Positions 3,796 to 15,650 of a DNA stretch of 15,650 nt are shown here, piece by piece. The notes under the pieces are model-generated. The model searched no databases, was not told where the DNA came from, and was given only the letters and a program-made list of their open reading frames with translations. Position 1 is the stretch's first letter, and the number at the start of each line of letters is the position of its first letter. Both the position numbers and the translations under genes were made by a program. The stretch lies in IMG/VR virus record IMGVR_UViG_2703718817_000011. One strand, given 5' to 3'. Source of the stretch: a virus (Duplodnaviria > Heunggongvirae > Uroviricota > Caudoviricetes).

Positions 3796-4091
3796 CAGTA
3801 CACCCCCACATCACGGTAAGCCGTCCAGAGTGCGCCTATCGTCATGGGTACGCGTGTTTTTGCGTTATCCGCGACAATCTGGCGATTTTCATACAGGTGA
3901 GCGATAAACATCATGCAGCCAATCTTTATGGCTGGCGTGAACTCCAGCCCGTCATCAAAGCGCCTGCCTATGTGTATCTGGCACGCCTCAAGCGATGCGG
4001 CAATGTATCCGCTGATTAACTGGTCTTCATCGTCGCCATCGATGCGGCAATGGAGTTTCACTTCTTCCAGGGTGATAAGTTCTTCTGTCAT
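3795..4091 (-). CDS. Head-tail connector protein (gp6-like DNA packaging protein)
   Basis: 98-aa ORF; N-terminal ITLEEVKLHCRIDGDDEDQLI pattern typical of gp6-like connectors (recollection); ATGA overlap with the upstream gene. Confidence 0.65.
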   Translation of the reverse strand: MTEELITLEEVKLHCRIDGDDEDQLISGYIAASLEACQIHIGRRFDDGLEFTPAIKIGCMMFIAHLYENRQIVADNAKTRVPMTIGALWTAYRDVGVY

Positions 4092-4426
4092 TTTTCCGCG
4101 CCCTCACGACAAAGAATTTCAAGGCGTGTCCTGGCGGCATCCGGCAGCGGCTGCCCGATGATATTCAGTACACGCCCCGCCAGCGGCCCCGTACTGACCT
4201 TTATCCGACTGGTGGCGTTGATGTCCTTCCGGTACCGTATCCAGATCCTTACGGTACCAATCGCCAGCTCTGCGCCCGATGAAATGGCCTCCTTGCTGCT
4301 GATCATGTTCACGCTTGCCCAGAGTGTGTGACCGTCCTCCCACGTTTCGAGTATTTCGCCCGTCATGGCTCTGGTCTGTTTCAGGGTCTGAATCGTTATC
4401 CTGTCACGCAGTCGCCCTATGTTCAT
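4088..4426 (-). CDS. Head closure / head-tail joining protein
   Basis: Start taken at the internal ATG 4426, which forms an ATGA overlap with the portal stop; begins MNIGRLRDRITIQ, a hallmark of the phage head-tail joining family. Confidence 0.65.
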   Translation of the reverse strand: MNIGRLRDRITIQTLKQTRAMTGEILETWEDGHTLWASVNMISSKEAISSGAELAIGTVRIWIRYRKDINATSRIKVSTGPLAGRVLNIIGQPLPDAARTRLEILCREGAEK

Positions 4427-11555: not shown

Positions 11556-11757
11556 AAAGCATCCCCTGAATATTCGTGTTAATCATTCCGGCACGTTTTG
11601 TGATTTCCTGTAATGATTCCCTTGTGGCGACAATTGCTTCATCTGGTAAGTGGTAATTACACACCACGCGACCTTTATCCACATTGACCAGTAGCTGCCC
11701 TGTGAATTTCTCACGAAACTGAATGCGGTTAAGGTCAGTAAGTGACAGATTAATCAT
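11545..11757 (-). CDS. Hypothetical protein (70 aa)
   Basis: ATG 11757 preceded by a strong AGGAGGTG SD and overlapping the upstream stop. Confidence 0.5.
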   Translation of the reverse strand: MINLSLTDLNRIQFREKFTGQLLVNVDKGRVVCNYHLPDEAIVATRESLQEITKRAGMINTNIQGMLYAQ

Positions 11758-12307
11758 GGCGCACCTCCTGACGAATACGGGCGGCAAATACAGCAACACA
11801 ACCGGACGGGCAACGGTTACGCGCTTCGCGTTCCGTCCAGGCGGTTACGTGGATGATTTGATGGTCTGACGCGCCAAAGGCAATAAAGCGCCAGATAAAG
11901 GCTGTTTGAGAATGTACGAGGGCAGGGGTAGTAGCCATGTTGGCAGCCTCCTCAGTGTGGTTAAGATAACCGCCACGCAAAAGGCTAATTTCGCTGGTGG
12001 CGGACTGTACAGGGTTAGCCTTACCGGACACTGAAGAAACCGGCGCGGATTGCTCCGCCCCCGTACAGCCCACCATTGATAAGGTGTGACTATGCGGCAC
12101 AAAAAAACACGCGGGACGCGTGCTGTGCGCTTCAGTTGTTTTCAGGAGGCTAATCCCGACACCCGTTTTATGAGGTGCGCGGGAATCATAGCTATTTTCG
12201 ACACTGGCGATCAACTGGTTTTTTTCTCCGATATTCAGGGCCAGAAAACGCCACACAAAGGCAGTTTGTGTGTGTACAAGGTGTGGTATATGATTTACAG
12301 CAACCAT
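11750..12307 (-). CDS. Icd-like (P4 host cell division inhibitor-like) protein with tandem duplicated domain and internal start
   Basis: ATG 12307 with an AGGAG SD; two copies of an LVH(T/S)QTAF(V/I)WRF segment; second in-frame ATG at 11938 has its own GAGGAGG SD; Icd-like call from recollection of P4-like island proteins. Confidence 0.5.
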   Translation of the reverse strand: MVAVNHIPHLVHTQTAFVWRFLALNIGEKNQLIASVENSYDSRAPHKTGVGISLLKTTEAHSTRPACFFVPHSHTLSMVGCTGAEQSAPVSSVSGKANPVQSATSEISLLRGGYLNHTEEAANMATTPALVHSQTAFIWRFIAFGASDHQIIHVTAWTEREARNRCPSGCVAVFAARIRQEVRHD

Positions 12308-12398
12308 AACGGCTCCTAGTTTACGTTGTTGGTTAGAAGCCCTGCGAGTGGTAACGACACTTGCGGGGCTTTGTCTTTTCATCGATTACCTTGATAAA

Positions 12399-12487
12399 GG
12401 TGTCAGCCACTATATTAGTAACGGGTGTCAGCCACGTCAATAGTGTTTTTCCGTTTTCTTGTGTGTATACTGTCAGCCACCTAATAA
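12399..12487. promoter_or_regulatory. Divergent promoter/operator region with three direct repeats of GGTGTCAGCCAC
   Basis: Repeats at 12399-12410, 12424-12435 and 12470-12480; minus-strand TTGACG-17nt-TAATAT (12435-12440 and 12412-12417) with a repeat in the spacer; plus-strand TATACT (12466-12471) or TTGTGT-17nt-TAATAA. Confidence 0.45.
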
Positions 12488-12501
12488 CGAGGAAATCAGA
12501 T

Positions 12502-12681
12502 ATGGCAACAAAAGCAGTTAATGCAAAATCCAAAAAGCTTGAGGCTCGAGTACCACACGCAATAGCTGATGCTGTAGAAAATTTAAAGGAAGATGGCGAA
12601 AGTACAGGGCAATTTATCGTTTCGGCACTTGAAGGCGAGATCAAACGCCGCCAGCGCCGCAAGGCCAAAGAATCAGAATAA
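12502..12681 (+). CDS. Ribbon-helix-helix (CopG/Arc-like) DNA-binding protein, 59 aa
   Basis: ATG 12502 with a GGAA SD; predicted beta-strand/helix/helix layout (KLEARVPHAIADAVENLKEDGESTGQFIVSALEGEIKRR); divergent from the replication operon. Confidence 0.55.
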   Translation: MATKAVNAKSKKLEARVPHAIADAVENLKEDGESTGQFIVSALEGEIKRRQRRKAKESE

Positions 12682-12738
12682 TCACTATCAGCGCCGTGGT
12701 GTGAGGTACTACGGCGCATTGCTTTACAGGGCAGTATC

Positions 12739-12966
12739 ATGACCAACAACACACTATCACCAATACAAGACACGCAAACGCAAGATGATGAATTCATCCG
12801 GCAAAGGCAGTCAGAAGCCTGCGCCAGACTTGAGGAAGAACTAACCAGAACAAAAATACCACCACCAGCGCCGCGCTTAGTGCCACCAGAAAAATTTGCC
12901 CTTGAAGATTTTGTCGATAAATACCCACGGCGGCTTAAATCCGGCAAAAACCGACCGCCAGGATGA
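12739..12966 (+). CDS. Small protein of unknown function (75 aa), partner of the upstream RHH gene
   Basis: ATG 12739 follows the conserved 44-nt hairpin element; paralogous to 13423..13626. Confidence 0.45.
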   Translation: MTNNTLSPIQDTQTQDDEFIRQRQSEACARLEEELTRTKIPPPAPRLVPPEKFALEDFVDKYPRRLKSGKNRPPG

Positions 12967-13084
12967 GTGCACAAAACCGAACTATGAAACGGATTATTCC
13001 GTTTCCGGGGCGTTTGTGTGTGTATAAAGAGTAAGCTATGCTCTTTTATAGCCATAATCGTTCCTCAATTAATGGTTTGGTTAG

Positions 13085-13128
13085 ACGCCCCGTATGTGTT
13101 CCCATCACTGCGGGGCGTTGTTTTTTGT
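13085..13128 (+). terminator. Intrinsic terminator after the first RHH module
   Basis: 8-bp GC-rich stem ACGCCCCG / CGGGGCGT followed by TGTTTTTTG. Confidence 0.5.
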
Positions 13129-13185
13129 GCTAGTTGTGTGTAATGTGTATATACACATAAACACATTATATGGGGTGTAATTGAC

Positions 13186-13365
13186 GTGTCAACACACAAA
13201 AATGAAAGGCGTGGTAATCCTCCTTTCCAGTTCCGTTTAGATCCTGACTTACGGGAAAAGATGGAAAAAGCACAACAACAAGACGGTGATGACTCTTTAG
13301 CTGCTTGGATAAAACGAATAATCCGAAAAGAATTACAGCAACGCGGTATTGAACCCAAAGAATAA
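13186..13365 (+). CDS. Arc-like ribbon-helix-helix protein, about 59 aa (start uncertain, GTG proposed)
   Basis: Not in the ORF track (below 60 aa with a non-ATG start); hand translation gives VSTHKNERRGNPPFQFRLDPDLREKMEKAQQQDGDDSLAAWIKRIIRKELQQRGIEPKE, resembling P22 Arc; GGGGTG SD-like 8 nt upstream. Confidence 0.5.
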   Translation: MSTHKNERRGNPPFQFRLDPDLREKMEKAQQQDGDDSLAAWIKRIIRKELQQRGIEPKE

Positions 13366-13422
13366 AAAACATCAGCGCCGTGGCGTGAGGAACTCCGGCG
13401 CATTGCTTTACAGGTACACACA

Positions 13423-13626
13423 ATGACCAATAAAGAATCAACCAATACACCATCGCAAAAAACGAACAGAGAGCACGAAAATATGGCGCTCGAGCATGAA
13501 TCAGAAAGATTCGCTCCATGCGCTTTTGTCCTTGATGAGTTTCTAAAAAAATATTCACGTTCTGAACGGATGAAAATGGCAGCACAATACGGCCCCAACA
13601 AGCAAGGTAATTGCCCACCAGCCTGA
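13423..13626 (+). CDS. Small protein of unknown function (67 aa), paralogue of 12739..12966
   Basis: ATG 13423 follows the second copy of the 44-nt element; both proteins start MTN and share a C-terminal F(A/V)L(E/D)(D/E)F..KY.R motif. Confidence 0.45.
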   Translation: MTNKESTNTPSQKTNREHENMALEHESERFAPCAFVLDEFLKKYSRSERMKMAAQYGPNKQGNCPPA

Positions 13627-13699
13627 TAGCGGCTATCATTCCCGTGCTTATGTTTGGGATCACATACACATAAGGCGCAGCAGGTTAATTGTTCAGAAA

Positions 13700-13728
13700 G
13701 GCGGCTCCATATCGGGGCCGCTTTTTTT
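13700..13728 (+). terminator. Intrinsic terminator after the second RHH module
   Basis: GCGGC / GCCGC stem followed by seven T. Confidence 0.5.
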
Positions 13729-13869
13729 ATGCCTGAAAAACCCCAATTTTGTTGTTTTTCAGTTTCACCAGGGCGAACGAATCCCCGCCCACGTTCGGGC
13801 GCATATTCAATCTTCATAGTTATATCTCTGTATTAGTGGATGTGTGGCGACTGTGTGCCGCCAGTCTTT

Positions 13870-14058
13870 TTAGTGAACTGCCTTGCAGCTATCCTTCCAG
13901 GCCAAAACCTCAGATAAAGACCAGCCAACAGAACGCCCACCAAGTTTACGACGTGATGGGAATTGTCCGGCCTTTTCCAGGCGGTAGCGGCATGAGCGGC
14001 TAAGGCCTGTTAGCTTTTCGCATTCTTTTTCACGTATAAACCGATCAGTGCTTAACAC
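13870..14058 (-). CDS. alpA: AlpA-family phage regulatory protein (excisionase/transcriptional regulator-like)
   Basis: 62 aa, apparent GTG start with an AAGGGGG SD; winged-helix excisionase-like sequence (LTGLSRSCRYRLEKAGQFP ... GWSLSEVLAW); downstream of and co-directional with int. Confidence 0.78.
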   Translation of the reverse strand: MLSTDRFIREKECEKLTGLSRSCRYRLEKAGQFPSRRKLGGRSVGWSLSEVLAWKDSCKAVH

Positions 14059-14432: not shown

Positions 14433-15650
14433 TTATTTTATTCTGGTTACTGGTAGCGTGGTTACGTTTTCATGTGTTCCCGCCAGTATCTCCAACCGCT
14501 CCACCCACATATCAAGCGCATTGCGTTTCGCATCAATATAGCGGGAATGGTTGTACACGCGTTGCATTCCTGGCATCTGGTGGCCTGTAAGCTGCTCCAC
14601 GACGTGAGGATCAACGCCTAAATCGTTCAGCATGGTTGTAAAGGTGCGCCGGATGTCATGCAATGACCATTGAGGGTGTTTTAGCCTCCTGTGCGCTAAT
14701 CTGCCGTACTGCGATACGCTAGCCTCCTGTTTCACTTCCCCCAGTAATAAGCCCGTGTGCCTGTTCTGGTCCACCAGCCGCGTGACGAACGGCAGGATCG
14801 CTTCCGGTATGGGCCGGAATATTGCAACCTTCGTTTTGCTGTGCTCCTTCGGAACGGTCCATAGCATTTCGGTAAAATCCCACTCGCTGATCTCCGATAA
14901 CCTCAGTTCTACCGTCCTGGCTCCGAAGACAATCAGGAGGCGGATTAACGCGACGTAGTAAGGAGAAAATATTTTTTTATCCAGCGCCTGCAATAACTCG
15001 CCCAGTTCTTTGGTGCTTAAGACACGTTCGCTTATATCCGGTTTTTTCCCAACGTCCGCCACGTTCAGATCATCGAGAACGTTGCTGATTGCAAAGCGCC
15101 GCCTCCGGCAGAACTTAAGCGCCTGCTTGCATGTCTGTAGCACGAATCCGGCAGTAACAGGTGTTCGCTTTGCCACCTGGTCAAAACAGGCCAGCCAGTG
15201 CCGTAGCTCGCATTTATCCAGCGGCATAGCGCCAATGTACTGTATTACGTGATTATTAAGTCGCCTTTTCAGGGCGATATAATCCACGCGGTTTTCCTTT
15301 ACGTACGACTCAAGCCAGTAGGTGAGCGCATCGCCAACCGTTACCGGCTTTAACGCTTCCTGTACGGCGTAATTCATCTCATGGCGTGGATTTTTCCCCT
15401 CCGCCAGCCATGCGCGACACTGGGCGGCTTTTTCCCTGGCTGCTTTCAGGCTCAGATCAGGATAATTTCCCAGCTTAATACGTTCCGGTCGTGTCTCTCT
15501 TCCCGTTCCTGCCCTGTAAGTGAAATACCAGGTTAATTTCCCTGATGTTAAATATTTCACGCTCAGATTTCCGCCATCGCTATAAAACGTGTTTTTCTCC
15601 GCTGGCTTACCATGAAGTTTCCTTAGCAAGGTATCGCTCAGTTTGTTCAT
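14433..15650 (-). CDS. int: Tyrosine-type site-specific integrase (phage/P4-like family)
   Basis: 405-aa ORF whose start codon is the last three bases of the window; C-terminal catalytic signature HDIRRT ... H ... Y and an N-terminal arm-binding-like domain. Confidence 0.9.
   Translation of the reverse strand: MNKLSDTLLRKLHGKPAEKNTFYSDGGNLSVKYLTSGKLTWYFTYRAGTGRETRPERIKLGNYPDLSLKAAREKAAQCRAWLAEGKNPRHEMNYAVQEALKPVTVGDALTYWLESYVKENRVDYIALKRRLNNHVIQYIGAMPLDKCELRHWLACFDQVAKRTPVTAGFVLQTCKQALKFCRRRRFAISNVLDDLNVADVGKKPDISERVLSTKELGELLQALDKKIFSPYYVALIRLLIVFGARTVELRLSEISEWDFTEMLWTVPKEHSKTKVAIFRPIPEAILPFVTRLVDQNRHTGLLLGEVKQEASVSQYGRLAHRRLKHPQWSLHDIRRTFTTMLNDLGVDPHVVEQLTGHQMPGMQRVYNHSRYIDAKRNALDMWVERLEILAGTHENVTTLPVTRIK

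Follow-up and report, generated by a model that had tools for sequence, protein, structure and literature searches.

The 15,650-nt stretch analysed here (viral record IMGVR_UViG_2703718817_000011, Caudoviricetes; called the window at its full length) is a capsid-forming phage-inducible chromosomal island (PICI), and this work deals with two short gene pairs on its plus strand, between the regulator gene alpA and the leftward replication operon. Each pair consists of a gene for a ribbon-helix-helix (RHH) protein followed by a gene for a small protein (S), and a first-pass annotation made from the letters alone had described them as tandem, diverged modules with operator-like sequences upstream and a terminator downstream. 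All four open reading frames (ORFs) were recovered, RHH1 and S1 forming cassette 1 and RHH2 and S2 cassette 2 (Table 1); repeats lie ahead of each unit, and each unit is followed by a plus-strand terminator. That of cassette 1 is homologous to a hairpin at 12336-12372, and that of cassette 2 folds at -12.3 kcal/mol (z=-1.4) when read on the minus strand. The copies are strongly diverged, as had been claimed: RHH1 and RHH2 give no BLASTP alignment, and S1 and S2 one with E=0.02. In comparisons of family profiles, RHH1 and RHH2 are in register over the strand and both helices (hhalign probability 67%, E=5e-5), and S1 and S2 match over an 18-residue core (FAPCAFVLDEFLKKYSRS in S1, VPPEKFALEDFVDKYPRR in S2; probability 86%, E=5.5e-6), so that the partners can still be recognised as paralogues. 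The two units can be aligned end to end. A 75-nt repeat, which includes the 57-nt linker between RHH and S, is 80% identical between the copies, and its hairpin core is identical at 24/27 positions, whereas the flanking coding DNA has diverged; the duplication exceeds what chance would give.

All four genes are coding. The ratio of nonsynonymous to synonymous polymorphism (pN/pS) is lowest in the plus frame in 5/5 sets (0.38-0.57, versus 0.46-0.78 in the antisense frame), and the Shine-Dalgarno sequences are strong and lie at a fixed spacing across loci. The small ORFs carry a coding signature of their own, with pN/pS of 0.50 for S1 and 0.38 for S2, a conserved start and ribosome-binding site, and a frame that is kept through indels (57, 58, 59, 60, 67 and 75 aa). 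RHH1 scores 60.6 bits (E=1.1e-16) against model positions 1-42 of NF041551 (YlcI/YnfO), an NCBIfam model of the N-terminal domain whose curated cut-off is 30 bits, and by this score RHH1 is a predicted member of the YlcI/YnfO family (DUF3950), known from lambdoid prophages. Its AlphaFold2 (AF2) model, built from a 31-sequence alignment (pLDDT 89), has an extended N-terminal segment and two helices, the second of which extends to residue 58 of 59. The N-terminal beta-strand followed by two helices that characterises the RHH superfamily is therefore present in the model of RHH1, for which the fold proposed at first reading stands. RHH2 matches phrog_228 ('Arc-like repressor', E=1.5e-6). Because its score against NF041551 (20 bits, E=5e-4) is under the 30-bit cut-off, it is not filed as a YlcI/YnfO member and is related to that family at the profile level only. 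RHH proteins of classes A and B are 57-65 aa long, and relatives of RHH1 are spread across Enterobacterales. Profile searches with both classes against PDB sequences gave nothing significant; the best matches of class B were NikR (E=0.38) and Mnt (E=0.61), both weak and located at the strand and first helix. In the literature, we found no functional study of YlcI/YnfO proteins and none naming an RHH repressor in phage satellites; a search for PICI repressors likewise yielded none. YlcI of E. coli K-12 has the same strand-helix-helix pattern as RHH1; unlike the genes studied here, ylcI lies beside cos and nohD of the DLP12 prophage, with no linker hairpin, S gene or divergent operon. Its context next to cos was considered as a clue to function and gave no hint.

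In cassette 1, three copies of the repeat GGTGTCAGCCAC (the O3 copy, at 12469, with 2 mismatches) are distributed over a leftward promoter-like site, P_L1, and over the start of the RHH gene: O2 lies within the P_L spacer, O1 just past the P_L -10, and O3 on the rightward -10/+1. In cassette 2, an inverted repeat of the RHH2 type overlaps the -10 and the start site of P_L2, which agrees with the sigma-70 consensus at every position. No further copies of the operator-like repeats of either cassette were found elsewhere in the window. P_L2 also overlaps the GTG start of RHH2; leftward from there it reaches only the remnant of an icd-like gene start and then runs antisense into cassette 1.

For comparison, 120 related loci were collected by a pattern scan of IMG/VR, the pattern fixing the outer stem of the linker; the loci were sorted by RHH allele into 24 groups, and 140-230 nt upstream of the RHH gene were read. 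The layout was constant and consisted of a hairpin, O1, O2, (G/T)TCAA, a T-rich stretch, GTGTATACTG, O3, and then the Shine-Dalgarno sequence and ATG, where the (G/T)TCAA directly after O2 is the complement of a minus-strand TTGAC -35. Within this conserved layout, most of the 24 groups have their own repeated motifs. The repeat differs from allele to allele (GGTGTCAGCCAC for RHH1; GGTGTTGAACACC, GGTGCATCGCACC, CTGGATTCCAG and TGTGCGCACA for others), and other class B alleles possess palindromes of their own, for example GGTAATTACC and AGGTGACCACCT, each present twice. A repeated 9-mer was common to 7 of the 276 pairs of allele groups, and in all 7 the beta-strand was identical; one of these pairs joins RHH1 of E. 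coli and a Xenorhabdus protein, both with KKLEARVPH and TGTCAGCCAC. Such co-variation of repeat and allele would be expected if a repressor and its operators diversified together, as in phage immunity regions. The RHH protein thus reads as an allele-specific repressor and autoregulator, and the binding of RHH dimers to the repeats, by a two-stranded sheet that would enter the major groove, is indirectly suggested by the co-variation of the repeats with the beta-strand sequence. The first-pass annotation had noted that the first RHH gene occupies the position of a master repressor, and this view has gained weight, as the putative operators overlap the leftward promoter and change with the RHH allele.

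The G+C-rich hairpin at 12336-12372 recurs in the same position in all related loci. On the minus strand it folds at -16.3 kcal/mol (z=-3.0) and, because it lies between P_L1 and the icd-like start, it would be a 5' untranslated-region hairpin of the minus-strand RNA. Read on the plus strand, every element, even a single-cassette island in which there is nothing obvious to terminate, has a terminator-like hairpin between each leftward promoter and the icd-like start.

Table 1. Features of the two cassettes and of their surroundings in the window (positions in nt of the 15,650-nt stretch; promoters and operators are predicted)
Feature	Position	Strand	Remarks
RHH1	12502-12681	+	59 aa, ATG start; Shine-Dalgarno GAGGA at 12489-12493; predicted YlcI/YnfO-family RHH
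S1	12739-12966	+	75 aa, S1 type; C-terminal motif KFALEDFVDKYPRRLKSGKNRPPG
RHH2	13186-13365	+	59 aa, GTG start; Arc-like RHH, class B
S2	13423-13626	+	67 aa, S2 type; core ERFAPCAFVLDEFLKKY; phrog_21027, E=2e-12
Control region of cassette 1	12399-12480		three repeats, P_L1, likely rightward -10
Putative operators of RHH1	O1 12399-12410; O2 12424-12435; O3 12469-12480		GGTGTCAGCCAC
P_L1, leftward promoter-like site	-35 12440-12435; -10 12417-12412	-	TTGACG, TAATAT; 9/12 consensus
Likely rightward -10 of RHH1	12466-12471	+	TATACT
Control region of cassette 2	13140-13192		inverted repeat and P_L2
Inverted repeat	13140-13169		TAATGTGT...ACACATTA; inner palindrome TGTATATACA at 13142-13159
P_L2	-35 13192-13187; -10 13170-13165	-	TTGACA, 16-nt spacer, TATAAT; 12/12 sigma-70 consensus
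G+C-rich hairpin, then T-run (terminator-like)	12336-12372	+	-28 kcal/mol, z=-4.6
Linker 1	12682-12738	+	conserved, 57 nt; hairpin 12691-12717, then AUUGCUUUACAGG
Linker 2	13366-13422	+	hairpin 13375-13401
Terminator of cassette 1	13084-13119	+	stem plus UUGUUUUUU; -23.9 kcal/mol, z=-4.0
Terminator of cassette 2	13695-13727	+	flanked by A-run and T-run; -21.7 kcal/mol, z=-4.4
Leader ORF-1	12333-13055	-	240 aa; antisense to S1, linker, RHH1, control region 1
Leader ORF-2	13065-13817	-	250 aa; antisense to S2, linker, RHH2, control region 2
alpA	13870-14058	-	activator/excisionase-type regulator, upstream of the leader ORFs; Pfam Phage_AlpA, E=5e-18
Integrase	14433-15650	-	from ORF list
Ash/Icd-like ORF	11750-12382	-	first in leftward operon; Phage_ASH domain
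isrK RNA	12178-12102	-	inside Ash/Icd-like ORF; Rfam, 61.6 bits
C4 RNA	12080-11993	-	inside Ash/Icd-like ORF; Rfam, 75.4 bits

The stop codon of RHH and the start codon of S invariably share a frame, with 57 nt and no further stop between them; at the DNA level, conservation of this linker is extreme. In linker 1, the stem-loop folds on the plus strand at -24.3 kcal/mol (z=-3.4) and is stronger in the plus-strand RNA because of G-U pairs. The segment that follows it, AUUGCUUUACAGG, combines a weak U-tract with the ribosome-binding site of S, and the linker tail (AUUGCUUU or AUUGCUAU) is a poor U-tract. The stem-loop might therefore act as a leaky terminator or as a processing site that sets the RHH:S ratio. 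Among the loci fetched with the outer stem fixed, the upper stem varies by mismatches and not by compensatory changes. The complementary strand of the linker contains an internal ATG (GCAATGCGCC), which becomes the start of an antisense ORF where foreign DNA follows the hairpin. A role of the linker as a target of the C4 RNA was considered and dropped, full-length duplex energies being uninformative and inconsistent between the two linkers (z=-0.4 and -3.0). The succession of a hairpin and ATTG... in the linker may resemble the oriT of R388; as 2072 of the 2075 places with the linker in E. coli genomes are chromosomal, we keep this as a lead only.

Each cassette lies opposite a long minus-strand ORF, which we call a leader ORF. 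Leader ORF-1 starts at the remnant icd-like start (ATG 13055, Shine-Dalgarno GAGGA) and stops 23 nt short of the ATG of the icd-like gene (12309). The start of leader ORF-2, 53 nt past alpA, is preceded by a weak ribosome-binding site, and its beginning, MKIEYAPERGRGFVRP, is what remains of the N-terminus of an AntA/Bro-N antirepressor. Both end at or shortly before an icd-like gene start. The antisense frame through the linker was open in 130/130 occurrences, with a median length of 329 codons (range 190-765). When coding parts were simulated with synonymous codons and non-coding parts were shuffled, the chance of staying open was about 5e-4 for leader ORF-1 and 2e-4 for leader ORF-2. The products have no Pfam domain, are Cys/Ser/Arg-rich and are hypervariable wherever the operators vary; what is conserved is therefore the openness of the frame and not the protein. 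We interpret the minus-strand ORFs as leaders similar to the eta ORF of phage P4, with the RHH-S cassettes nested antisense within them. A summary of the work on P4 (PMC10111431) describes eta as coupled to the alpA homologue vis, with the constitutive promoter PLE inside it, and its translation as preventing immunity-RNA-mediated termination, so that late transcripts read through.

With these observations in hand, we consider it probable that each unit is a protein-repressor cassette of a Gram-negative phage satellite, either a PICI or a P4-like element. The RHH protein, presumably as a dimer or tetramer, would bind three short allele-specific repeats. Two of them are placed at the spacer and start site of P_L, which would drive the icd/ash-like gene and then the replication and packaging genes, and the third lies on the -10/+1 of the RHH gene itself, so that RHH would repress the main operon and regulate its own synthesis. 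The stem-loop with its poor U-tract would let part of the transcripts pass into S, a small and mostly non-globular protein that would fill an exchangeable slot and not be a cognate partner of RHH. Transcripts driven by AlpA and translated through the antisense leader frame would escape termination, by analogy with P4 eta, run against the RHH-S unit and switch the satellite on. In the quiescent window, RHH2 would hold P_L2 and RHH1 would hold P_L1, both being made from autoregulated promoters, with S1 and S2 made at lower levels and the plus-strand terminators keeping RHH-S transcripts out of the next unit and of alpA. Upon induction, leftward AlpA transcripts could lower RHH synthesis and expose P_L2 and P_L1; with two cassettes of two specificities, both repressors would have to be overcome.

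Several points weigh against this interpretation. The rightward promoter has a poor -35 and was not called by the promoter scan. Under a strict test, 5 of the 24 allele groups, that of RHH2 among them, have no exact repeated 9-mer, the repeats being imperfect. The fold of linker 2 (-14.2 kcal/mol, z=-0.6) is no stabler than shuffled sequence. With respect to the leader, pN/pS is below 1 only through wobble positions shared with the plus-strand genes, and the leader of the window is split in two without overlapping alpA, unlike P4 eta, which overlaps vis. Moreover, where C4 and isrK are present, as in the window, P4-type immunity needs an active leftward promoter to produce the immunity RNA, with which full repression by RHH would conflict. 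Finally, AlpA alone induces the island EcCICFT073 (PMC6092414), which is compatible with the proposed mechanism and does not require a repressor.

The S genes are real genes, and the family is seen mainly in Escherichia: a search of 1.84 billion proteins gave 17 representatives at E<=0.001 (55-92 aa), and those with a named source come from Escherichia or Shigella. Three main types can be distinguished, of 57 aa (Salpha), 67 aa (S2) and 75 aa (S1), with a common core F-A-L-E-x-F-(L/V)-x-K-Y and hypervariable flanks; the commonest type carries an arginine-rich patch, RKRRRRK. The AF2 model of S1 has a helix at residues 9-38, a proline-rich linker, a helix at 54-61 over the core and a disordered basic tail, and is non-globular (pLDDT 77, pTM 0.35). 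No significant relatives of S were found in the PDB. Where an S2 gene is present in the fetched loci, alpA lies within 450 nt of it provided that the contig reaches that far. An integral role of S in the switch, as an anti-activator of AlpA, a modulator of termination and read-through or a sensor of helper proteins, is the alternative that survives best, and we regard it as rather unlikely. The conserved helix of the core would then bind a conserved target and the variable N-terminus would set specificity. The presence of S in most E. coli cassettes, with its ribosome-binding site and start strictly conserved, is in favor of such a function, as are the contrast of conserved core and hypervariable flanks, the arginine-rich patch and the fixed order in tandem arrays, with S2 next to alpA. 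Against it, S is missing from the otherwise identical cassettes of Yersinia and Xenorhabdus, where the RHH gene stands without S and, in Xenorhabdus, is followed by a plain terminator; S has also been replaced by an unrelated gene in one E. coli lineage, and it matches no known regulator.

That replacement was seen at L006 (8650-9535) and, in similar form, at L007, L010, L012, L031 and L041: an AT-rich segment occupies the S position after the hairpin (junction GCGCATTGCTATG|TAAATACTGG) and encodes, on the same strand, a predicted membrane protein of 178 aa with no Pfam match above cut-off and no PADLOC match. The reverse situation, an S gene whose RHH gene is deleted, was found in one lineage on more than 30 contigs. 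A decayed tandem array at L130 (1455-2341) has an RHH-less S-like gene (62 aa) that abuts the Ash gene, followed by an intact class B RHH gene with a diverged 58-aa S, and a single antisense frame of 605 aa spans the array.

A direct interaction, in which S binds RHH as co-repressor or antirepressor and the S:RHH ratio set by the intercistronic stem-loop tunes operator occupancy, seems to us improbable. In its favor, the two genes are co-transcribed, the stem-loop could set such a ratio, and RHH proteins of classes A, C and D have a conserved C-terminal tail, RRQRRKAKE(S/P/Q)E. The tail of class B is different (QQRGIEPKG), yet this class pairs with all three S types, and S is dispensable in other genera. 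Less probable still is a type II toxin-antitoxin or addiction module, with RHH as antitoxin and autorepressor and S as a toxin that stabilises the island or aborts infection. The order of an RHH gene and a small gene in one operon agrees with such a module, as does a weak match of RHH2 to a VapB-type NCBIfam model (E=0.012). Cognate pairing was not observed, however: S1 and Salpha were each found with every one of the four named RHH classes and S2 with three of these, and the exact N-terminal 29 residues of RHH1 were found with both S1 and Salpha. RHH has no toxin-binding extension (only ~8 residues beyond helix 2), S lacks a globular fold, and, in line with the remark at first reading that neither small protein resembles a recognised toxin family, searches of S against Pfam, NCBIfam and PADLOC gave no significant match to a toxin or defence family. 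The putative operators lie, moreover, on the promoter of the divergent operon and not merely on that of the cassette. We rejected the toxin-antitoxin reading because S shuffles freely among RHH classes, is absent in Yersinia and Xenorhabdus and matches no toxin family. Indeed, recombination, absence, replacement and persistence without RHH all argue against a toxin-antitoxin pair as well as against an obligate RHH-S partnership. The first-pass annotation had left open a toxin-antitoxin pair or a repressor with an effector; the second is closer to the evidence, and S fits best as the occupant of an exchangeable slot in a repressor operon. That the plus-strand ORFs are mere shadows of a real long minus-strand gene of the Bro-network/Icd-like type is hardly credible: the minus frame is open in all occurrences, gene callers predict antisense ORFs of 195-435 aa and PGAP places Icd-like/BRO-N pseudogenes there and omits RHH and S (O157:H7 record), but pN/pS is lower in the plus frame, Shine-Dalgarno sites are conserved, a curated family model is matched, the alignment yields a confident structure model, and the minus-strand product is domainless, of biased composition and hypervariable at the operators.

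Gram-negative PICIs occur in roughly a third of E. coli genomes and spread virulence and defence genes. Of 5426 complete E. coli genomes, 1578 contain the linker; its 2075 places, of which 2072 are chromosomal, usually coincide with the 3' end of a gene that is annotated as 'YlcI/YnfO family protein'. In all annotated examples, int and alpA are followed by the cassette, which lies on the opposite strand, and then by an Icd-like gene and a primase or helicase gene. The cassette is present in the model island EcCICFT073 (a single copy, NC_004431.1 1380242-1380652), in E. coli Nissle 1917, and in a satellite of E. coli O157:H7 (L004) together with a RepA-type helicase, SSB and PerC. In the RefSeq record of the latter (3834-4238), the RHH and S genes are left unannotated and an Icd-like pseudogene is called on the opposite strand. 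The cassette is thus a standard and very common part of E. coli satellites, a point that the first reading had missed, and not an unusual insertion. Most fetched loci have one copy of the linker; six IMG/VR loci and the window have two in tandem, and at least 80% of the two-cassette stretch is carried by 41 complete genomes. The segment 12300-13900 of the window is 100% identical to positions 13001-14601 of L001 (E. coli RM10466), an island whose backbone is not that of the window (it has a DUF927 primase, lambda-like genes for capsid and decoration proteins, and TerS), which indicates that the cassette moves between satellite lineages. In all seven tandem loci (the window, L008, L027, L030, L101 and L119 among them), S1 is proximal to the operon and S2 to alpA, and S1 is never adjacent to alpA in the fetched loci; RHH alleles vary freely in these arrays. 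Cassette 2 of the window has its own consensus leftward promoter and the remnant of an icd-like gene start. The tandem arrangement appears to have arisen when two satellites of different specificities recombined.

Of the known systems that come nearest to the cassettes, the immI region of P22 (Mnt, Arc, Pant) likewise has small RHH repressors with operators that overlap the promoter of an antirepressor-type (Bro-network) operon, a divergent repressor gene as mnt, an RHH gene with a second gene in one operon as arc-ant, and an RNA layer in the same region. It differs in that the downstream gene here encodes 57-75 aa, versus roughly 300 aa for Ant, in the three allele-specific repeats and in the nesting of the cassette antisense to a leader ORF; moreover, no counterpart of the antisense RNA sar was found, the promoter scan having called nothing on the minus strand of the linker or of the 5' part of S. 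P4 shares an alpA/vis homologue upstream, a long Bro-network ORF with an internal leftward promoter, and the order of an isrK(seqA)-like and then a C4(CI)-like RNA, which in P4 lie inside the eta ORF. In P4, however, vis and seqA are separated by ~70 nt with neither RHH nor S, whereas alpA and isrK are 1.7 kb apart here, with the antisense cassettes in between. RHH1 and the commonest S type had no tblastn match in 50,697 deposited phage genomes, P4 included, and the cassette is therefore not a feature of P4 or of known phages. Like Stl/Rpr, the master repressors of Gram-positive PICIs such as SaPI, the RHH genes stand next to int and regulators, divergent from the replication and packaging operon, exist as many alleles and, in our proposal, hold the island quiescent. 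Stl proteins are much larger helix-turn-helix proteins inactivated by helper-phage proteins, unlike the 59-aa RHH proteins, which have no sensor domain, and induction of Gram-negative PICIs has been reported to proceed via AlpA. The RHH repressors CopG (pMV158) and omega (pSM19035) differ by their context, a plasmid instead of a satellite, and have no detectable sequence homology; the putative operator here is a unit of 12-13 bp whose GGTG/CACC edges are constant and whose core is specific to the allele.

Repressors of the RHH type that act on repeated operators are already known, as is the leader logic of P4, and the genes have been annotated before. AlpA has been described as the activator of Gram-negative PICIs and their global repressor as unclear (PMC6092414). 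It is conceivable, though we would put it somewhat short of even, that the RHH cassettes are the missing master repressors and immunity determinants of these islands, orthogonal to one another, nested in an eta-like leader, at times arranged as tandem double locks and provided with an effector slot. If so, a repressor role in Gram-negative satellites would be newly assigned, to a candidate with a readable allele-to-operator code. There would be dozens of orthogonal RHH-operator specificities, with the code residing in the beta-strand and the operator core, which would yield a natural library of small orthogonal repressor-operator pairs. Translation of the leader would allow AlpA transcripts to pass, and convergent transcription would thereby silence the repressor; the nesting in an open antisense frame would be a compact example of two strands with interlocked regulatory information. 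Tandem cassettes could act as double locks or mark an intermediate stage at which co-resident satellites swap immunity, and the slot after the linker a place for small effectors expressed in the quiescent state. As the candidate is present in two model islands that are used experimentally, silencing of the island can be tested directly.

The window has the int and alpA genes, the replication module and the own capsid and packaging genes by which a PICI is recognised; no tail or lysis genes were seen among its scanned ORFs. Its other minus-strand genes comprise small genes and those for an AAA_25 helicase, SSB, major capsid protein, prohead protease, portal protein, TerS and TerL. With its isrK and C4 RNAs, the leftward unit is an immunity region of the P4 type, which had been overlooked at first reading; this type of RNA immunity is a property of the surroundings of the cassettes and not of the RHH-S cassettes themselves. 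In the Ash/Icd-like ORF that contains both RNAs, the motif LVH(T/S)QTAF(V/I)WRF(L/I)A occurs twice internally. Because no C4 or isrK match was found in 14 of 15 other RHH-bearing satellites (one C4 match, zero isrK), RHH is often the sole recognisable repressor. For the Rfam int-alpA RNA (RF02996), the window gave no match at the gathering threshold; such a match lies between int and alpA in a Yersinia satellite with RHH but without S (L125, 6844-6912).

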